Source: an uncultured Candidatus Saccharibacteria bacterium
GTDB lineage: Bacteria > Patescibacteriota > Minisyncoccia > Phycocordibacterales > UBA918
NCBI GenBank assembly: GCA_964655825.1
Contig: CAZZPW010000002.1
Span: 6,813 to 46,073 of the forward strand
Reading direction: 5' to 3'
DNA length: 39,261 nucleotides
This document shows, in pieces, positions 11,286 through 19,937 of the stretch; position 1 is the stretch's first letter, and each line of letters starts with the position of its first letter. The notes under the pieces are model-generated. The model did no database searches. It was not told where the DNA came from and worked only from the letters and a program-made list of their open reading frames with translations. Made by a program: the position numbers and the translations under genes.

Positions 11286-12308
11286 TTATTCTACCGTAAA
11301 AAGTGCTTTACCGCGCTCCCACAACTCTGGATGACCGCGGTCAATTAACCAGTACCACCACTCTCCGCCCCACAAATACTGGCGATCAAACCGAGTTGCT
11401 TCGGCGTAGGTCAAAATATCTTCAAACTTTGCCAGGTCCATACGTGAAAATTGCGTATCGATATCAGTCTCAACGATAGGTGCAATCAGCCATGGTTCGG
11501 CCGACAGCTCAATTAAAAGGGTGTCCTGAGTGCCGTAGCGAAGTGCCATAAGACCCTCTTTAAGGCGGTAAAACCAGGGCGGTAGGATTGTCCGAAACTG
11601 GCCTAACTCTGGGTTCCAAAAGTGTACGTACACACTGGTACCAAACACATCACCATTACGCCAGGCCCCAGCCCACGTACCAAGATTGCCACTGTCGGTA
11701 ACTAAAATCGGACGCGAGTCATCGAGGCTGCGCACCAGGGCGACTTCTTCTCGGAGAAACGCCTCGTCTGTTTCTCCACAGTGCTCAAACGCAAATACTT
11801 CTAGGAATGGCTCGTTCTCAACTTGCCAGAGCGTAATAGCCGGACTGTCCTGATACCGTTGGACTACCACTTCAATGTACTCCAGAATCTCTGCTTGTTG
11901 CTCTGCCCACGTCATATCACGTGCCCACGTAGGAATATGACACTCCGGCCAGCGCGGTAGACGACGCCCAACCGCCAAGACCACCTCTGCACCAACTGCT
12001 TCTGCCCGGGCCACTTGGTAGTCAAGTTCTTCGAAGTTATACACATCATTACGTGGTTCCACCATCGGCCAGTGTGCCGCCAAGCGTAGGTGGCGAACAC
12101 CTAGGTCGTCTAAAAAGGCATCGTACACTTCTTGCCAATCGAGGCCGAGCTCGCGAGCGTAGGGAGTATTAAACGACATACCATAGGTAATCTGAGCAGG
12201 TATCGGTTTTTGGATAAGCCACAGTACCGCGACAATGCTCGCCAACGCAATACATACAAGCATGAGTACGGTCCAAAAAATATACGGATGTCGCTGGCGC
12301 CAACTCAT
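11286..12308 (-). CDS. membrane-anchored glycoside hydrolase, clan GH-A (GH5/GH42-like TIM barrel)
   Basis: N-terminal TM helix; HLRLAAHWPMVEP; acid/base-type motif WQVENEPF; candidate nucleophile in LLIELSAEPW. The ATG at 12308 forms an ATGA overlap with the upstream stop. Confidence 0.6.
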   Translation of the reverse strand: MSWRQRHPYIFWTVLMLVCIALASIVAVLWLIQKPIPAQITYGMSFNTPYARELGLDWQEVYDAFLDDLGVRHLRLAAHWPMVEPRNDVYNFEELDYQVARAEAVGAEVVLAVGRRLPRWPECHIPTWARDMTWAEQQAEILEYIEVVVQRYQDSPAITLWQVENEPFLEVFAFEHCGETDEAFLREEVALVRSLDDSRPILVTDSGNLGTWAGAWRNGDVFGTSVYVHFWNPELGQFRTILPPWFYRLKEGLMALRYGTQDTLLIELSAEPWLIAPIVETDIDTQFSRMDLAKFEDILTYAEATRFDRQYLWGGEWWYWLIDRGHPELWERGKALFTVE

Positions 12309-13237
12309 ACAAACAAGAACGCAAAACCGATACAAATGATAATCACGTAGGCAGTCTTGCGGACGATGGTCTTGGTGGCAAAATCACGCTCACCAACCAC
12401 CACCGGTAGGTAGCGACCAAATAGTAAGGTGAGGAAAATGATAAAGACAAACTTAAGCCCATCGAGCGCTTGCACCACTGCCACACTTCCCCAATCGGTC
12501 GCTTTAAGGAGCATAAACGCAGCAATCCCAGCGAGTATCTTCGCCAATAAGACAAGCGCCCCACCACGGGCATTGGCCTGTTTCGTTTGCTCACGAATTT
12601 TGTTCCAGTACACCGGCACCAACAGGAGCGAGAGCGCAAACAGTACAAAGCCAACGCGCGACCAAAAGAAACCATCGTCAAACGATGTCTCCAGGAAGAG
12701 TCCTTTGAGCGTAATGTAGTGGAGCGAGAAGAAAATCCCACTCTGTAGCGAAAGCATCACGGTGGTCCCCCGCAGGCGCATCTCTGAGACCAAAAACGTA
12801 CCTATCGACAGTAATACGATACCCCAGATGAAGTTCGCAGAGAGCGCACCGTCAAGAAACAGGTACGACATGCCAAAGGTTGATAGTGCTGATATAGCCC
12901 CAATGACCGGTAACACATCTGAAGCATCGGCTTTCTTAAGCGCGCTGTACATACCTACCAACGCCATAAAGAAGGTGTACCCTGCCAAAAAGGCCATTCC
13001 GACCACTTGGATACTCGGGGTTTGGATATTTGCAAACTGTGGCACGCCGAGGGCGGACATGCCGGGAATGAGACCAAGTAGAAACACAAACACCCATCCG
13101 CCCGTGATGAGGCACGAGTAAAACGCGTAGACAAACGGCTTCGGCAAAACCCGTTCATCAGACACGATATACTTGTCGAGAATTGCGACTATGGCATTAA
13201 TAAATTGCCCCGCCGCTGCGACTAGAATCCAGGCCAT
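12305..13237 (-). CDS. DMT-superfamily (EamA-like) membrane protein
   Basis: 310 aa with about 10 TM helices arranged as two 5-TM halves. Confidence 0.5.
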   Translation of the reverse strand: MAWILVAAAGQFINAIVAILDKYIVSDERVLPKPFVYAFYSCLITGGWVFVFLLGLIPGMSALGVPQFANIQTPSIQVVGMAFLAGYTFFMALVGMYSALKKADASDVLPVIGAISALSTFGMSYLFLDGALSANFIWGIVLLSIGTFLVSEMRLRGTTVMLSLQSGIFFSLHYITLKGLFLETSFDDGFFWSRVGFVLFALSLLLVPVYWNKIREQTKQANARGGALVLLAKILAGIAAFMLLKATDWGSVAVVQALDGLKFVFIIFLTLLFGRYLPVVVGERDFATKTIVRKTAYVIIICIGFAFLFV

Positions 13238-13273: not shown

Positions 13274-14509
13274 CTACTTTCCCCCACTATCGGGAATACC
13301 GTTGGCGTCTATAATGTCTTTGTATACCCACGCACTCGGGCGAATCGTTCGCTCGAGCGTGTCGTAGTTAATGGCGACCAACCCAAAGCACTTCTGGGTG
13401 CCTAAGGCCCACTCATAGTTGTCGATCAGGCTCCAGTACATATGCCCCCGCACATCAATGCCGTCATCAAGCGCGCGTTTGGTGGCTCGTATTTGTTCGG
13501 TGATGTAGGCCGCCCGTCGCGTATCCGTTCGGTCAGCCAAACCTGCTTCAGAGATAAATATCGGCTTACGGTAGCGTGTTAGTAATTTGAGCGAGCCGTA
13601 TATGCCTTCAGGATATATATCCCAATCCATATCAGTCTTATCATATTCAGCTCGATCACCGAACTTTTTATGGAAGTAGTAATTTAAGCCGATTGAATCG
13701 ATTGTATGTCGTACCCGTCGCATATATACATGCGTCCACATCCGGTTTGCCACCCACGCACGAAGCATATTGTAGGGATTCCAGTTCGCATGAAAATAAA
13801 TCACATGCTTTACAACGCCCACATCAAGATTAGGTTGACTGGCTTTAATCAATGTATACGCTTCGTTGTGGGCACGTGCCAGGTTACGGAGTACGCGTCG
13901 GTAGAGAAATAGCGGGCGAATGCCACGATTTGCTCGGGATTCGTATGTTCGACCCGAGTTTGTGATCGAAACGAAGTCGGTAGCGGCAAAACGTTTAAAT
14001 GGAGGCCAACTACCTCGCAGCCACCCATTACTGGCATACACATTTGGCTCGTTCATAGTCGAGAAGTGCGTACAGAGGTCGCCCAACTCCTTAGCCACAA
14101 AGGCACAGTAGCGAGCGAAGACTTGTGGCGCGTCGGCCCGTTCAAATCCACCCCGTTTGGCAAACCACTGGGGCAGCGTAAAGTGCCAGAGCGTTACAAA
14201 CGGTTCAATATTGCGAGCCCGCAAGGCTTTCAAGACTGCTCGGTAGTGCTCAATTTCGGCAAAATCCCACTTCCCTTCTTCTGGCTCAATGCGCGCCCAT
14301 TCAATCGAAAACCGGTGGGCATTATGACCAAGCTCTTTAGCAATATCAAAATCTTCTTCGTACCGGTGGTAGTGATCGGCTAAACGGCCAGCCGGTGGCA
14401 CCTTCCCATCCCGTGCGGCTTGCGCCCAATCGGTATTCTCGTTCCAGCCTTCGACTTGGTACGAGGCGGTGGCGGCACCCCAATAAAAATTTTTTGGAAA
14501 TGATTTCAT
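13274..14509 (-). CDS. GH1 beta-glucosidase
   Basis: FPKNFYWGAATASYQVEGW N-terminal signature, acid/base TMNEPNVY, nucleophile region FISEAGLAD. The ATG at 14509 is preferred over the TTG at 14515. Confidence 0.9.
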   Translation of the reverse strand: MKSFPKNFYWGAATASYQVEGWNENTDWAQAARDGKVPPAGRLADHYHRYEEDFDIAKELGHNAHRFSIEWARIEPEEGKWDFAEIEHYRAVLKALRARNIEPFVTLWHFTLPQWFAKRGGFERADAPQVFARYCAFVAKELGDLCTHFSTMNEPNVYASNGWLRGSWPPFKRFAATDFVSITNSGRTYESRANRGIRPLFLYRRVLRNLARAHNEAYTLIKASQPNLDVGVVKHVIYFHANWNPYNMLRAWVANRMWTHVYMRRVRHTIDSIGLNYYFHKKFGDRAEYDKTDMDWDIYPEGIYGSLKLLTRYRKPIFISEAGLADRTDTRRAAYITEQIRATKRALDDGIDVRGHMYWSLIDNYEWALGTQKCFGLVAINYDTLERTIRPSAWVYKDIIDANGIPDSGGK

Positions 14510-14640
14510 ACACAATTTTTATTGGCTCTTACAGAGGCAGTACACCCTGTCATCATTTTCTGCGAAAATGCTAGGCACGGTCTTGCAAAAGCGTCCCACG
14601 CTTTCTCACCCCACAAGAATCCTTCAGGAAATTTGTTCAT
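14506..14640 (-). CDS. doubtful 44-codon upstream ORF starting with a GH1-like N-terminal module
   Basis: MNKFPEGFLWGEKAWDAFARPCLAFSQKMMTGCTASVRANKNCV. Its TGA overlaps the GH1 ATG (ATGA), and its ATG overlaps the TGA of the upstream repeat ORF (ATGA). Confidence 0.25.
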   Translation of the reverse strand: MNKFPEGFLWGEKAWDAFARPCLAFSQKMMTGCTASVRANKNCV

Positions 14641-14963
14641 ACATTGTTGTCTTTAGGAGGTGCCGGCTGATTACAGCAGCGGTTCAGGTTATCAATATTT
14701 TTATTCAAAAACAGTAGGCAACCTCTTGCGACAGTCCCCCGCTGTCTCTGCTTACAGCAGCGGTTCAGGTTGTCGCTACTATTGCTCGTTACCTCGCATA
14801 GTAGCAGGCAACCTCTTGCGACAGTCCCCCGCTGTCTCTGCTTACAGCAGCGGTTCAGGTTGTCGCTACTATTGCTCGTTACCTCGCATAGTAGCAGGCA
14901 ACCTCTTGCGACAGTCCCCCGGACTGTCTCACCCCAGTAAAAATTTTCAGGGTACGTAGTCAT
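14637..14963 (-). CDS. doubtful 108-codon ORF running through the tandem repeats (Cys-rich 30-aa units)
   Basis: MTTYPENFYWGETV followed by 2 x RGTVARGCLLLCEVTSNSSDNLNRCCKQRQ and a 27-aa variant unit. The repeat periods of 81 and 90 nt keep the frame. A -10 box lies 6 nt upstream of the ATG. It could equally be a structured RNA leader. Confidence 0.3.
   Translation of the reverse strand: MTTYPENFYWGETVRGTVARGCLLLCEVTSNSSDNLNRCCKQRQRGTVARGCLLLCEVTSNSSDNLNRCCKQRQRGTVARGCLLFLNKNIDNLNRCCNQPAPPKDNNV
14671..14931. repeat. tandem repeat, three units (81, 90, ~90 nt) with internal hairpins
   Basis: TTACAGCAGCGGTTCAGGTT occurs at 14671, 14752 and 14842. The stretch 14716..14831 is identical to 14806..14921. 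Hairpins lie at 14768..14813 and 14820..14836 in unit 2, and again 90 nt further on. Confidence 0.95.
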
Positions 14964-14969
14964 GTCTTC

Positions 14970-14997
14970 AGTATAGCTTACCAAATTAGGGTACCAA
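14970..14997 (-). promoter_or_regulatory. candidate sigma70-type promoter inside the 3' end of the upstream gene
   Basis: On the minus strand: TTGGTA (14997..14992), a 16-nt spacer, TATACT (14975..14970), 6 nt, then the ATG at 14963. Confidence 0.4.
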
Positions 14998-15613
14998 TAG
15001 CGGCTGTACACGCTACACCAAAGAGTATGTACTCTACTCCCGACACCCAATTCAAATTGTAATACCAATACGGAACCCAATCATCAACACCCCACCGTGT
15101 GATGTATTGCGGCAGTTCATCTGCCGACCAGCTTATGATGGGTCGCAACCGACGCTCTTCAACCGACAATCGCTCCCAATCTCCGTCTACTTGTAATAGG
15201 TGTTTTAAACGATTTACACGCCGACCAAGTACCTTATAGTTTCGGTTTGAGAGTGGCCATAATACCTTTAGTCCCCAGCCTGTTCCGTATAAATCATTTA
15301 TCAAATGAAGTAAGACAGCGAAGGTTAGTACCCAGCCCCAGTATCCAACAAACCAGACTGCTAGAGCCATAAGACCCACCGCAAAAACTGGGTAGTGCAA
15401 AAAGGTTCTATGGTCAGCACTATGCACTGCTGAAGCAGCAACTCGACCTCGTCGCAATAGCTCAGGTAAAGCATCAATGTCTGGTACGTGCGAAAGGAGA
15501 AGACCAATTAGAAAATGCCACCACAGGACGTCGACACCGGTCACCCAACTCGCGAGCAATACTGCAAATATGCCGTTTGCCCAGTCAGCGAGTAATACAA
15601 CAACCTGCTTCAT
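14978..15613 (-). CDS. membrane-bound metal-dependent hydrolase, YdjM/DUF457-like
   Basis: 211 aa, multi-TM, with conserved-looking His/Asp positions (LLLSHVPDIDAL, ADHRTFLHYP, LLHLINDLYGTGWG). Confidence 0.6.
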   Translation of the reverse strand: MKQVVVLLADWANGIFAVLLASWVTGVDVLWWHFLIGLLLSHVPDIDALPELLRRGRVAASAVHSADHRTFLHYPVFAVGLMALAVWFVGYWGWVLTFAVLLHLINDLYGTGWGLKVLWPLSNRNYKVLGRRVNRLKHLLQVDGDWERLSVEERRLRPIISWSADELPQYITRWGVDDWVPYWYYNLNWVSGVEYILFGVACTAAIGTLIW

Positions 15614-16446: not shown

Positions 16447-17733
16447 CTACCGCACAGTTACCCCTTCGGGTACCTTTTCTGGGTCGACCAAAAAACCTTT
16501 TAAGTCGCGACGACCAATAATGATAGGGAACCGGAGGTGACTTCGTTCCGTGTAGCTTGCAATCGTTTTAATGGTCTTACCTTTCATTTTGAACGCAAAC
16601 TTTGCGGTCTTACGCTTTTGTCGACCACTCCCAGAGCGAACGTGGACGAGCTTGTCGTGTTCGTCTAAGCCAAGCTCGTGCACCAAATCGACGTCGATTG
16701 ATGAGCGAAACGCTCCGGTGTCGATTTTCGCACGGACACTTTTCTTTTTATTTGGTCCCATAATAGTAATACGTTCGATGACACCAAGCGTGCGGTCAGC
16801 GACATCAACCGCTTCAAGTGAACTATCAGCAAACAATTGTTGGGCCAACTGAATAGCTCGCTCCGTGGTCGGCACCTCAAGATTCGACACACGCTCTAAG
16901 CGCGTCCGTAACGATGAGCGATTCGCAACCTGAATGGAAAGCCCAGGCCGAGCGTTAACCTCGAGCACTAGCGGTCCTCGCTCCTCATCGAGAATAATAT
17001 CAATGCCGACAAACCCGAGACGCGAGGCTCGTTGCGCCTCGATTGAAACCCGTAAGATTTCTTCCCACTGCGGTAATTTAATACCGTGCAACTTAAGTTT
17101 TGTGCCCGGAACGTACCGGACAGTATCGTTATGAGCTGCCGCGTAGGTAGTGATACCAGTCCGCATATCGATACCAACGCCGAGGGCACCAAGGTGCAGA
17201 TTGGCTTTACCATCAGACTGTTTTGTCGGTAAGCGAAGCATCGCCATCACGGGAATACCATTACAGACAATCACCCGTACATCGGGCACACCACCGTGCG
17301 TGTACTTCTTAAACATAGAGTGCACCCGCACCCGCTCTTCCACAAAAGCGTTATCAGGTAAGTTGTCGAGTGAGTGTGCCCCATCGAGAATACCGAAGAT
17401 TTCTGACTCAAGGTCGGCTACTCCAAAATCTCGCTTAGCTGAACGCCCACTGGTACCATCCCACTTGCCGACTATCGTAATTCCACGGCCACCATAACCA
17501 TGCGCTGGCTTTAACACAAACGCGCGTGGGAGTGTCTCCCAGTTGTAGTGACGCGCGGTGTCGAATGAGGTAAATGCGGCAATCAGCCCGGTGGTCGGCA
17601 CACCTGCATCTAATAAGACTTGCTTGGTGGCTAATTTATCATCGGCACGCAGCTTATACGTACGCCGATTAAATTTGCGAATGTAGAGGTAGTTACGGGC
17701 ATTGAGACCCAACACTGTCTGACTGAGTGCCAT
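16447..17733 (-). CDS. RimK-like ATP-grasp amidoligase (alpha-L-glutamate ligase-like) fused to a C-terminal retropepsin-like domain
   Basis: LGLNARNYLYIRKFNRRTYKLRADDKLATKQVL, VLKPAHGYGGRGITIV and GIDIILDEERGPLVLEVNARPG are ATP-grasp features. The C-terminal ~110 aa carry VRAKIDTGAFRSSID (the D-T-G-A signature). Confidence 0.8.
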   Translation of the reverse strand: MALSQTVLGLNARNYLYIRKFNRRTYKLRADDKLATKQVLLDAGVPTTGLIAAFTSFDTARHYNWETLPRAFVLKPAHGYGGRGITIVGKWDGTSGRSAKRDFGVADLESEIFGILDGAHSLDNLPDNAFVEERVRVHSMFKKYTHGGVPDVRVIVCNGIPVMAMLRLPTKQSDGKANLHLGALGVGIDMRTGITTYAAAHNDTVRYVPGTKLKLHGIKLPQWEEILRVSIEAQRASRLGFVGIDIILDEERGPLVLEVNARPGLSIQVANRSSLRTRLERVSNLEVPTTERAIQLAQQLFADSSLEAVDVADRTLGVIERITIMGPNKKKSVRAKIDTGAFRSSIDVDLVHELGLDEHDKLVHVRSGSGRQKRKTAKFAFKMKGKTIKTIASYTERSHLRFPIIIGRRDLKGFLVDPEKVPEGVTVR

Positions 17734-17742
17734 AGTACAATA

Positions 17743-18663
17743 CTAATCTGTTACAAACTCCCGAAACCGAAAGACCTCAGTTAAGCGCAGGCCAAAGTAT
17801 CGACCAATCATAATATTCAGTGGTATGACGAGTAACACTAACTCGGGATAGACAATCAGGTAATTGCGCACCACTTCGCTCGTTGCTAAGAAGTACCCGA
17901 GTAAACCGAGCATCAGTGTCGTTGAAGTAATCGTCAGTGTTTCCGTTAAACTCTTGTGCAGTTGTACCGATACGATAGAGTCACCGAGCAAAATCAGAAT
18001 TAGAATCGGGAAAATTGACAAACTTAAGACTTGCTCGTACTCAAAGAAGAGGGCTGCCGTTAGAGCGGCAAAGACAAAAATGGAGAGGATCAAGAGCGAC
18101 AGCGAGCGTTTCGGGTAGAACATCATCCGGACATTAGAGACCAGCATTTTGGCTACGTACGACGCGAGTACGACCGCTCCCAAGATAAACAGACCTACCC
18201 CCACACCAACCGACACGAAGGCAAATGCTAAAGCAATCGGGACGAGCATGTCGACCGTTGGAAGGCCAATCACCACCCGGGTAAAACTAATACAGAGCGC
18301 CAGTATCGGCGTAAGCAGAATCAAGAATATTGTATTTGCAGGAATACCCACAAAAATTGCCTCCTGGACCCAGTACGCGAAGAAATTAAAAAACGTGAGT
18401 TCCGGCAGCGGTCGTTTCTCAAGCTCAGCAAAAATCGCCTGCTGTGCCTCTTCTCGTTCGGGCTGCGTAGGGTCGTTAGCTTGTGTGGTTACCGCTTCAC
18501 GTTGCGAGGTAAGCTCGGCGGCAGTGTTAGATGCTGCGAGTACCGGCGAAGCGCTTGTTGCCGTACTGGTGGCTACCGATGAGGTCGCGGTCGTTGTTTG
18601 CGCGTATAGCGTTACCGCGCTCAAAAGAAAAAGGGCTACAGCCCCTCCGAATACATATTTCAT
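17743..18663 (-). CDS. 7TM membrane protein of the type associated with RimK-like ligases (no transglutaminase domain)
   Basis: Signal peptide MKYVFGGAVALFLLSAVTLYAQ, a Thr/Ser/Ala-rich spacer, about 7 TM helices, and a C-terminal GLRLTEVFRFREF. The ATG at 18663 lies 2 nt after the upstream stop. Confidence 0.55.
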   Translation of the reverse strand: MKYVFGGAVALFLLSAVTLYAQTTTATSSVATSTATSASPVLAASNTAAELTSQREAVTTQANDPTQPEREEAQQAIFAELEKRPLPELTFFNFFAYWVQEAIFVGIPANTIFLILLTPILALCISFTRVVIGLPTVDMLVPIALAFAFVSVGVGVGLFILGAVVLASYVAKMLVSNVRMMFYPKRSLSLLILSIFVFAALTAALFFEYEQVLSLSIFPILILILLGDSIVSVQLHKSLTETLTITSTTLMLGLLGYFLATSEVVRNYLIVYPELVLLVIPLNIMIGRYFGLRLTEVFRFREFVTD

Positions 18664-18665
18664 AA

Positions 18666-19937
18666 TTACCACTGTGGCAGAATTTCTAGAGTTTGTAAAG
18701 ACGTTACATGTCGGTTATTCAACGGGTCGAATTTACCTACGAACAGATGTGGGTACCGCTCGGGATGGTTAATCAGATACTCCCACATCTCCACGTTGCC
18801 TTCAAAGTACACCATACTCTTGGTGAGCACACAGCCCGTTGACTGCCCAGTAGTACCCCGAAAAATACGTCGACACACCTCCCAGGTCCGACGAATAATT
18901 GATTCCTCATCGGCATGTGGGTCGTGACTGTGGATTTGGTAGTAGGCTCGCATGAGTACAAATACCGAACGGAAATCACGTTCCTCACCATCAAGCCCGA
19001 GCGCGAGTCCGAGGGCAAGATAGCGGTCTTGTCCGTAGAATAAATCGGCTCCTTCAACTTGCTGCTGAGTATAACTCGCCAGCCCTTCTTCACCCTTAAG
19101 GTACCCGTCGAGCCCTATCGCTAATAACCGTAACGACTGCTGCGTACCGCGGTGTGCCCGAGTAGCATGGACACCAATTTCGTGAGCCGCAATAGCCTCT
19201 GTTGCTACGTGCGTCAGGGGTCGGTGTCGATTCGCCAGATGTTCATCGTTAGGCACATACACCTGTCGTTTTGAGGGATTAACCGAAAAAATCACGCGTC
19301 GACCGGTAGTATCAACCACCACTTGCCAGCCCTCGAGAGCGTGTTCAGCAATAATCTCTTCAAATACCTTTGCTACCTGCGTGCTGGTGAGAGCTGGTTC
19401 ATTACTCGCTCGTAGGGGTGGCAGCACCTCTGTTGGCAATGGCTCTGTTGGGCGTGCTACGTGCCCAAGTGTGTCGGAGAGTTTATCTAACGCCTGTTCG
19501 GCAGTACTATTGTTGGGGGTCTGTGCTAATGCGTGGTGTACAATTTGGGCAAAGTAGGTGGTATTAGGGCTCCCGTAAATCAGTTTTGACGTGGCGCAAA
19601 ACCGCTCGTCGTCCAATTGAGCAGCTGCGTCAAGCAATTCAAAACGCAACTGCTGGTTCTTCAGTTTAGCCCGGTACAATTGCACCACCACCTCGGGGGC
19701 AGAACTCGATTCGACCACATCCACGCACTCAGCCAGCGCGGCCGTCGCCGCCGACATGTCAAAAACCGCGGGTTCGAGTAAAAATTTTGGGTTTTCTACC
19801 TCATCAGTAATGAAGCGGACAAATTCCCGCCGGTCAACACTAATCATCGCCTGCAACACTTCCTCATCATTCACACTATCAAGTGCCGTGCGTAGTGACG
19901 CAAAAAGATCAGCATCGAGTACCGGATGTGCGCTCAT
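18666..19937 (-). CDS. DUF1704-family (QEGLA-motif / MATCAP-like) metallocarboxypeptidase
   Basis: HEIGVH (HExxxH) at AIAAHEIGVHATRAH, and a QEGLA-like LKGEEGLASY motif. 423 aa. Confidence 0.7.
   Translation of the reverse strand: MSAHPVLDADLFASLRTALDSVNDEEVLQAMISVDRREFVRFITDEVENPKFLLEPAVFDMSAATAALAECVDVVESSSAPEVVVQLYRAKLKNQQLRFELLDAAAQLDDERFCATSKLIYGSPNTTYFAQIVHHALAQTPNNSTAEQALDKLSDTLGHVARPTEPLPTEVLPPLRASNEPALTSTQVAKVFEEIIAEHALEGWQVVVDTTGRRVIFSVNPSKRQVYVPNDEHLANRHRPLTHVATEAIAAHEIGVHATRAHRGTQQSLRLLAIGLDGYLKGEEGLASYTQQQVEGADLFYGQDRYLALGLALGLDGEERDFRSVFVLMRAYYQIHSHDPHADEESIIRRTWEVCRRIFRGTTGQSTGCVLTKSMVYFEGNVEMWEYLINHPERYPHLFVGKFDPLNNRHVTSLQTLEILPQW

Follow-up and report, generated by a model that had tools for sequence, protein, structure and literature searches.

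The start of a family 1 glycoside hydrolase (GH1) gene occurs three times in succession in a stretch of 39,261 nucleotides (nt) from an uncultured Candidatus Saccharibacteria bacterium, which is referred to here as the window (GenBank assembly GCA_964655825.1, contig CAZZPW010000002.1, positions 6,813 to 46,073 of the forward strand). In this region the GH1 5' end has probably been copied in part twice, in a nested arrangement that is combined with a short structured repeat and placed in front of an intact, natively leaderless GH1 gene, and the repeat is likely to be a non-autonomous selfish mobile element. This repeat unit of 86–105 nt is named E in the following. It is probably an element of the Patescibacteria that acts via a sense-strand RNA or a single-stranded form; its mobility and the mechanism behind it are inferred from sequence comparisons.

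An earlier note, made from the window alone, had offered two explanations for the repeated starts, namely repeated duplication of part of the GH1 5' end, with an inserted element in its midst, and a relay of short, translationally coupled open reading frames (ORFs) that controls the expression of GH1. The former is borne out by the finding of E as a multi-copy element inside partial gene-end copies and by relatives with an empty site. The latter is not supported as the origin or purpose of the arrangement, as the start modules occur only where E occurs. It survives in a weaker form, as a secondary adaptation, given that the ATGA overlaps between the reading frames are kept.

Start modules and copies of E upstream of GH1

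The three GH1 start modules (Table 1) all encode M-x-x-(F/Y)-P-x-x-F-x-W-G, with starts at 14963, 14640 and 14509, and the window agrees in every detail with what had been noted about them. Modules 1 and 2 depart from GH1 homology directly after TGGGGT, where GAGA and repeat sequence come next; this earlier observation was likewise confirmed. Module 1 sits where the ancestral GH1 start lay, in the same position as the start in the empty-site relative L174, and module 2 is orthologous to the single module of L007, with 27 of 33 nt matching. The product of the intact gene is 100% identical to P0001, a protein of 411 amino acids (aa) named as a Candidatus Paceibacterota GH1. The YdjM-like gene upstream ends at 14978 and is followed by TTGGTA-16-TATACT-6-ATG, a promoter-like arrangement that the earlier note had pointed out and that was recovered by a consensus scan at 14997..14970. 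The TGA of ORF 1 overlaps the ATG of module 2 as ATGA (14640..14637), and the TGA of ORF 2 overlaps the GH1 ATG in the same manner (14509..14506). Both overlaps, previously described as the geometry of translational coupling, are present in the sequence and in the ORF list.

Tandem Repeats Finder assigned a period of 90, with 2.4 copies and 98% matches, to positions 14716..14930. Copy 2 of E abuts copy 1 head to tail and has its first bases in common with helix P4 of copy 1; its coordinates are those of copy 1 shifted by 90 nt. The repeat unit that had been considered a degenerate fourth copy proved to be a genuine family member, with 75.8 bits and an E-value of 5.8e-21 at 14522..14609 in a search with R1, a covariance model built from metagenome copies of E unrelated to the window. 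This copy 4 is orthologous to the single copies of L007 and L173. A scan of the whole 39-kb window with R1 gave no further E besides the units upstream of GH1.

Short tails follow the copies of E. The start of the tail after copy 3, taken together with the GC that closes P4, resembles GH1 after the insertion site (GCCGCCACCGCC; 10 of 12 positions). It resembles the reverse complement almost equally well, which makes its orientation in the window ambiguous. In the related locus L177, the tail GCCGGCTACCCAGT is identical at 12 of 14 positions to ACTGGGGAGCCGCC read as its reverse complement. The antisense match of the tail segment at 14514..14525 to GH1 codons 6–10 was equalled in 0 of 200 shuffles.

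The same order, module-element-module-element-GH1, is found in six independent assemblies of the same species (L001–L006, from ENA, NCBI and JGI), and the arrangement is thus not a chimera. The number of 90-nt units is three in the window and two in four other same-species assemblies (L001:2660–2840 vs window 14716–14930), and the two further same-species contigs, L005 and L006, break inside the 90-nt array. The difference between two and three units would be either a true copy-number polymorphism or a collapse of the perfect 90-nt repeat by the assembler.

Table 1. Features of the GH1 locus in the window. All coordinates upstream of GH1 refer to the minus strand.
Feature	Position	Strand	Basis
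Promoter-like site, TTGGTA and TATACT spaced by 16 nt, 6 nt from the first ATG	14970..14997	-	Consensus scan; putative function
GH1 start module 1, MTTYPENFYWG, ATGACTACGTACCCTGAAAATTTTTACTGGGGT; 5' part of partial GH1 copy 1	14931..14963	-	Sequence
E copy 1, E1-type, P2 = GGUUG/CAACC	14835..14932	-	R1, 98.4 bits, E-value 6.7e-28
E copy 2, identical to copy 1 in 90-nt register	14745..14842	-	Tandem repeat and exact pattern matches
E copy 3, different P3 hairpin UUUUUGAAUAAAAA, CUGUAAU loop	14664..14750	-	R1, 54.8 bits, E-value 1.7e-14
Tail after copy 3, CCGGCACCTCCTAAAGACAACAATGT	14641..14663	-	Sequence
Upstream ORF 1, 108 codons from ATG 14963, spans three copies of E	14637..14963	-	ORF list
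GH1 start module 2, MNKFPEGFLWG, ATGAACAAATTTCCTGAAGGATTCTTGTGGGGT; 5' part of partial GH1 copy 2	14608..14640	-	Sequence
E copy 4, E4-type, P2 = CCGUG/CAGGG	14522..14609	-	R1, 75.8 bits, E-value 5.8e-21
Tail segment CCAATAAAAATT	14514..14525	-	Exact reverse complement of GH1 codons 6–10, AATTTTTATTGG, 14480..14491
Upstream ORF 2, 44 codons (44 aa)	14506..14640	-	ORF list
GH1 start module 3, first 33 nt of the intact gene, ATGAAATCATTTCCAAAAAATTTTTATTGGGGT	14477..14509	-	Sequence
Intact GH1 gene, 411 aa	13274..14509	-	Pfam PF00232 Glyco_hydro_1, E-value 6.8e-70

Empty and occupied sites among relatives

Most of the 40 genome loci that were compared are without E, and modules were found only where E was found. 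In L174, whose GH1 is 77% identical to that of the window and which has the same ATP-grasp/YHYH/YdjM/GH1 synteny, the site is empty: GH1 is preceded by TATACT-GACTTTG-ATG, with no module and no E. The earlier note had suggested that relatives with the same GH1 operon be examined for the modules and had named their absence there as evidence against its proposal; such relatives do lack them. L176 (GH1 75% identical) is empty as well, with TATACT-ATTTTC-ATG and a different upstream gene. One module and one E4-type copy are present in L007 from Tara Oceans (82%), which also has the same ATGA overlap, and in L173 (81%). One module with one E copy of its own type is found in L016 (74%), while L177 (84%) carries one E1-type copy right before GH1. 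L163, for which GH1 identity was not compared, contains two modules and two different copies of E.

L019 (GH1 70% identical) carries a diverged variant that has no R1 match at an E-value of ≤ 1. In this locus (L019:2343–2500), the ATGA overlap with GH1 is kept, and the module MSEKELKQFPKNFYWG is followed by a larger structure in which GTGAGA leads into a P1 hairpin, then CCCUAAG, then a domain of several hairpins.

In the window, an E1-type partial copy that has grown to three units stands together with an E4-type partial copy, which fits recombination in the shared 33-nt module or a second insertion. In the proposed history, E would have landed after GH1 codon 11, directly behind TGG GG, and the gene would have survived since the start is present once more downstream, from ATG to GGT. 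Another partial copy would then have been stacked on top, either in a second event or when E1-type and E4-type lineages recombined, and the E1-type copy would have grown by unequal exchange to two or three units of 90 nt.

Structure and distribution of E

E begins with UGAGA and comprises four helices, P1 to P4, which are joined by the invariant single-stranded boxes GCAAGA, UGCC, GACA and CUGUAAG. Metagenome contigs were scanned with a pattern made of these boxes, GCAAGA-N3-TGCC ... GACA-N3-T-N9-CTGTAAG, in which the boxes are fixed and the helices are free to vary. The scan located E on at least 120 contigs, and among the matches listed for R1 there are 130 copies in 100 metagenome loci. Some metagenome loci hold two to three copies within a few hundred bases (up to three within 400 nt), arranged in tandem or inverted. 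An example is L092, with three copies in alternating orientation within 400 nt. Another short repeat, with the motifs ...TCATTGCGAGCG... and ...GCGAAGCAATCCA..., lies beside E in L072, L092, L129, L157 and L162.

The helices were assessed in a structure alignment of 98 distinct copies. Pairing was observed in 92% of helix cells, compared with 74% in column shuffles and ~45% with slid partners, and 491 cells had changed on both sides vs 148 in shuffles. Three pairs of P4 and two pairs of P2 account for 34–49 double changes each. On the strand that is sense for the gene, P1 has many G-U pairs, which points to a sense-strand RNA, or at least to a strand-specific single-stranded form. Compensatory differences also separate unit 4 of the window from the unit of L007. 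Specifically, helix 1 is AAAGCGU/ACGCUUU in the window and GAAGUGCU/AGCACUUC in L007, helix 2 is ACCGUG/CAGGGU and ACCUUG/CAAGGU, and helix 3 is CAUUUUC/GAAAAUG and GUAUUUUC/GAAAAUAC, respectively. These changes in P1, P2 and P3 keep the pairing and alter the amino acids of the upstream ORF. The constraint therefore acts on pairing and not on a peptide, and a peptide reading of the upstream ORF was rejected.

A permissive search of positions 14300..15200 against Rfam 15 returned nothing below an E-value of 3, the weakest match being a spurious flavivirus frameshift site. At the gathering threshold, ten E-bearing loci gave no Rfam family at E itself and only rRNA, tRNA and group I introns elsewhere. 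No E was detected in a pattern scan of IMG/VR or by blastn against phage records, and a literature search that included exact sequence strings found no description of it. The family is apparently undescribed.

Target genes, junctions and tails

E is located directly after the first codons of several protein genes. It follows A-G-G-C-F-W-G in MsrA, I-G-I-D-E-A-G in an RNase HII-like gene, G-I-T-G-x-x-G-x-G-K-G in a P-loop kinase and F-Y-W-G in GH1, and the frame at these protein-gene junctions is always ...GGT-GAG.... Genes for structural RNAs are affected in a comparable fashion. At L083, a tRNA-Cys fragment that extends up to the T-arm is followed by E and then by a complete tRNA-Cys. Nine differences between the two tRNA-Cys copies fall into a stretch of 14 nt, and the 35 nt that follow have none, a clustering that fits a heterologous origin of one of them. 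At L062, the first 24 nt of tRNA-Thr are present in three copies, the last of which alone is the whole gene. At L059, E is found in the T-loop of a tRNA-Ile 3' fragment, downstream of the intact gene. Beside 5S rRNA, at three loci, and beside one tRNA, E stands in antisense orientation within a partial copy of the gene's 3' end.

In the loci examined, E was not seen inside a complete ORF or a complete tRNA, and it occurs only in truncated gene-end copies beside an intact gene. The general anatomy of the family is thus that of an intact gene preceded by a partial copy of its end, which contains E, and the GH1 start modules are explained by it. When E was deleted in silico, no tRNA was restored in 7000 trial excisions and no long ORF spanned the junction.

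For 36 of 107 distinct copies, the flank that ends at the 5' end of E recurs 6–140 nt downstream of E and scores higher than all reversed controls. At mapped targets, the two copies of the flank do not differ up to and including the G that precedes TGAGA. E is always joined after G, usually GG, and its 5' junction is precise; the 3' junction is slightly ragged. Microhomology at the 5' junction was considered and rejected, as there is no excess overlap and the join after G is precise. The tails after E were compared with the targets in 29 mapped cases. A decayed sense copy of the target's other flank was detected in eight of them and an antisense copy of the target site also in eight (p ≤ 0.05 in both comparisons). 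A reading of the tails as guide RNAs was rejected: a crude exact-match test over all copies did not rise above the reversed control, and antisense matches were significant in 7–8 of the 29 mapped cases. The tails are treated as heterogeneous target-derived footprints and not as a proven guide.

In a search for an enzyme that could move E, 1017 ORFs from 120 loci, representing 705 kb of flanking DNA, were clustered. Only housekeeping families and the target genes emerged, and no recurrent recombinase or mobilising enzyme was among them.

Three further loci show features of their own. L021 (2040–2420) contains an inverted pair of E beside tRNA-Met (2184–2256 +, 2257–2333 -), accompanied by two terminator-like hairpins and by copies of the tRNA 3' end in both direct and inverted orientation; the pair lies ~230 nt upstream of a GH1 gene without a start module. 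On the minus strand of L062 (100–310), a second, different element stands after the tRNA-Thr 5' fragments (GTAAATAGTCCGGGGGACTGTTTACCACTTGTCACAAGTGAGTTGC...). Its P1-like hairpin resembles that of E, the rest differs, and it contains a 13-nt exact antisense match to the part of the tRNA that lies immediately 3' of the junction (GCAACTCACTTGT). This element may be a sister family of E. In L125 (1045–3290), the 23S rRNA gene beside an E-bearing 5S locus holds two Intron_gpI matches (89.9 and 51.9 bits) that are unrelated to E. Group I introns are typical of rRNA genes in the candidate phyla radiation (CPR).

Probable leaderless start and possible translational coupling

TATACT is positioned 6–7 nt before the first GH1 ATG in five lineages, namely the window, L007, L016, L174 and L176. 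This conserved spacing suggests that GH1 is natively leaderless, and the promoter-like site suggests a transcript start at about 14963 that is leaderless or near-leaderless. The earlier note had stated that other genes share this spacing, and several further gene heads of the window (4150, 13237, 17733 and 22775) indeed have a -10-like hexamer (TACAAT, CATAAT, TAGTAT, TATGAT) that precedes the start codon by 6–7 nt, with no Shine-Dalgarno sequence. Leaderless mRNAs may be common in this organism.

With the arrival of E, the 5'-terminal AUG would have come to belong to a fossil module, and the real AUG would now be internal. Ribosomes would start at the AUG of module 1, read through the copies of E and terminate at the ATGA, restart at module 2, terminate at the second ATGA, and restart once more at GH1. 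The sequence upstream of the real GH1 AUG, AATAAAAATTGTGT, is without a Shine-Dalgarno-like motif.

Nine GH1 junctions were compared in this respect (two in the window, two in L163, and one each in L007, L016, L019, L173 and L177). An ATGA overlap is present at six of the nine, i.e. at both junctions of the window and in L007, L016, L019 and L173. In L177, the stop of the upstream ORF begins 14 nt past the A of the GH1 ATG. The upstream ORF has 44 codons in the window, L007 and L016, and the tail measures 17 nt in L007 and L173 as it does in the window, in spite of its A-runs. All of the approximately ten GH1-linked copies of E, counted by hand from the sequences of the window and its relatives, are open in the GGT-GAG frame, compared with 37 of 98 copies overall. 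Furthermore, the tail CCAAUAAAAAUU pairs with GH1 codons 6–10 (AAUUUUUAUUGG) to form a predicted 12-bp hairpin with the GH1 AUG in its loop. This hairpin is the predicted minimum-free-energy fold in the window, L007 and L173, with one compensatory change from A-U to G-C. From these junctions it is inferred that a hand-over of ribosomes would have been kept by selection at GH1.

Neighbouring genes

Downstream of GH1 (window 11286–13237, minus strand), a membrane protein of 310 aa is encoded that has no Pfam match, with a faint EamA match in relatives. A GH42/GH10-like TIM-barrel protein is also found 3' of GH1, and the three-gene order is kept in all close relatives. This conservation suggests a small sugar-utilisation operon. 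Upstream of YdjM and GH1 (window 16447–19937, minus strand) lies a conserved cluster, syntenic in L174, which includes an ATPgrasp_ST protein with a C-terminal aspartyl/Zn-protease-like region, a 7TM_transglut membrane protein and a MATCAP-like carboxypeptidase. The cluster may represent a peptide-ligation or peptide-trimming system.

Alternative explanations

The region could be read as a regulatory leader that was purpose-built for GH1, either as a relay of coupled ORFs or as a tandem riboswitch that senses something. The retention of ATGA overlaps in several GH1 lineages, the position of a well-folded E between promoter and gene, and the hairpin that encloses the GH1 AUG are in line with such a leader. 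It is nevertheless improbable and, as an origin, already largely refuted: E also stands beside MsrA, the RNase HII-like gene, the P-loop kinase, tRNAs and 5S rRNA, sometimes in antisense orientation, the modules occur only together with E, and both are missing from the syntenic YdjM-GH1 locus L174 and from L176. The number of units may also vary between two and three within one species. A riboswitch of GH1 in particular was rejected, since E is associated with no single gene class and most loci of relatives, e.g. L174 and L176, are without it. A better case, although still a rather unlikely one, can be made for E as a beneficial cis-acting RNA at transcript ends, with a role in processing, stability, self-cleavage or protein binding, that has been spread by recombination. 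No Rfam family matches E, its host genes have no common function, its presence differs among close relatives, and tandem and inverted clusters are typical of repeats. These facts have to be set against the persistence of the boxes GCAAGA, UGCC, GACA and CUGUAAG and of the 5' UGAGA across very diverged copies, the G-U pairs indicative of a sense-strand RNA, and the proximity of E to the transcript ends of highly expressed genes, such as those of tRNAs and 5S rRNA.

That E is an intron, self-splicing or enzyme-spliced, with the upstream modules as alternative 5' exons, is very improbable. Its precise 5' junction G/GUGAGA resembles a 5' splice site, in protein genes it follows a Gly codon in one fixed frame, and in L059 both flanks within the tRNA T-loop are contiguous. 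The host in L059, however, is only a tRNA 3' fragment, what lies downstream of E is in every case a complete copy that has an ATG or tRNA 5' end to itself, and the 5S rRNA cases and one tRNA case are antisense. A self-splicing intron was rejected as a candidate, as removal of E restores no tRNA and no long ORF, no group I or group II model matches at E, and the downstream copy is provided with a start. The least credence of all is given to an artefact of assembly or binning, in the form of a chimeric join or a collapsed repeat. It could account for the contigs of the same species that break inside the repeat and for the difference of two vs three units between assemblies, but not for the same order in six independent assemblies or for the homologous arrangements in other species. 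Two more candidates were considered and discarded. In a CRISPR array, repeats would not be expected to behave as here, where units abut head to tail with a period of 90 and the variable part, P3, is a helix with compensatory changes. A miniature inverted-repeat transposable element (MITE) is not supported by the consensus ends, 5' GTGAGAAAG and CTGTAAGGAG 3', which are not complementary, or by the duplicated flanks of 15 to 71 nt with E inside one copy.

Several observations weigh against E as a selfish mobile element and against the promoter and coupling proposed for GH1. Around 60% of E copies have no detectable flank duplication within 300 nt, and no enzyme able to move E was found near its copies in the 705 kb of flanks. 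The single-stranded boxes are strongly conserved, which suggests some activity of the RNA that is not accounted for if E is purely selfish. The count of TTGGTA/TATACT-like sites in the region is not above that in shuffles. With regard to coupling, the GH1 junctions of L163 have gaps of 3 and 20 nt, and covariation in the AUG hairpin amounts to one compensatory change in three sequences. The ATGA junctions may descend from three or four independent events, which makes the statistics modest, and upstream ORFs end inside E at several MsrA and RNase HII-like loci. Because upstream ORFs stop inside E in other families and the independent junction events are few, coupling would be a local adaptation at GH1 and not a property of E; the odds that it takes place are rated as about even.

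Significance

The three GH1 starts represent one case of a widespread structured repeat family in Patescibacteria (CPR), organisms whose genomes are regarded as minimal and streamlined. E is tolerated at conserved sites of essential genes (tRNAs, 5S rRNA and conserved N-terminal motifs among them) as it lies in truncated duplicates beside the intact gene, which is unlike the solution provided by splicing. The GH1 locus illustrates how a leaderless gene may stay expressed after its start has been displaced, via a two-step relay of termination and reinitiation. In practical terms, R1 could help to recognise contig breaks, pseudo-tRNAs and small ORFs that are spurious when CPR metagenomes are assembled. 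The conserved core of E is, moreover, a candidate for a new functional RNA or ribozyme.

Comparison with known systems

The coupling proposed for GH1 is similar to the ATGA termination-reinitiation coupling known from bacterial operons and leaderless mRNAs in that upstream stops overlap the next ATG, there is no evident Shine-Dalgarno sequence, and a hairpin at the start would have to be opened by the upstream ribosome. It differs in that the upstream ORFs are fossils of the same gene start fused to a mobile element, and in that the relay has two steps.

With regard to E itself, the closest resemblance is to the REP (repetitive extragenic palindromic)/BIME, Correia/NEMIS and RPE (Rickettsia palindromic element) repeats. 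Like these, E is short (~90 nt), non-coding and multi-copy, has stable helices and is not accompanied by an adjacent transposase or any enzyme of its own. As with REP/RPE-type repeats, E is enriched in small-genome, host-dependent bacteria, and like RPE it can lie in reading frames and be read through by them. In contrast to REP, Correia and RPE repeats, E lacks terminal inverted repeats and a fixed-length target duplication, its 5' junction after G(G) is precise, and its four-helix core with invariant joining regions is more reminiscent of a functional RNA than of a palindrome. A further difference is that RPE is tolerated in frame within functional genes and that E is never located inside a complete functional gene.

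A second likeness is that to the attachment-site (att) duplications that arise when an integrative element supplies the gene with a replacement end, such as phage 21 and e14 in icd or islands in tRNA 3' ends. In both situations, an intact gene stands beside a displaced partial copy of its end with foreign DNA in between, conserved gene segments are targeted, and repeated events stack partial copies. The insert at E loci, however, measures ~100–330 nt and contains no integrase and no cargo, with only E and 6–140 nt between the copies. E also uses both 5' and 3' gene ends and lies inside the partial copy, not merely between a pair of att sites. Taken together, E looks like a selfish structured repeat of the REP/Correia/RPE kind in the way it works, with a footprint like that of an integrative att duplication. 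The architecture is what would result from a single crossover between a chromosomal gene end and a small molecule with a gene-end fragment plus E.

The third group for comparison comprises the palindrome-associated transposable elements (PATEs) of the IS200/IS605 family and the guide RNAs of TnpB/IscB. These are likewise strand-specific and hairpin-rich, their insertion takes place 3' of a short motif and duplicates no target sequence, and their flanking target sequence is able to act as a guide. E differs by the lack of an Rfam match and by its ragged 3' junction; TnpA, TnpB and IscB were not among the recurrent protein clusters in the 705 kb around the copies of E. Partial gene copies are not known to be a feature of IS200/IS605 insertion.

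Any account of how E spreads de novo must explain the precise join after G(G), the ragged 3' end, the sense and antisense tails, the conserved targets and the sites a few tens of bases from gene ends. The targets are probably highly transcribed, and an RNA-based mechanism of spread appears possible. E is tentatively proposed, as a possibility of clearly lower probability than selfish mobility as such, to be an RNA-based mobile element: a small catalytic or protein-assisted RNA with UGAGA and the P4 hairpin as its ends, which would be joined after G(G) close to the termini of highly transcribed genes and spread together with a replacement gene end, thereby sparing the host gene. The target-derived tails may then be guides or footprints of the insertion chemistry. 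If this is true, the strategy of E would differ from those of introns, inteins, transposons with short target duplications and integrase-borne islands.

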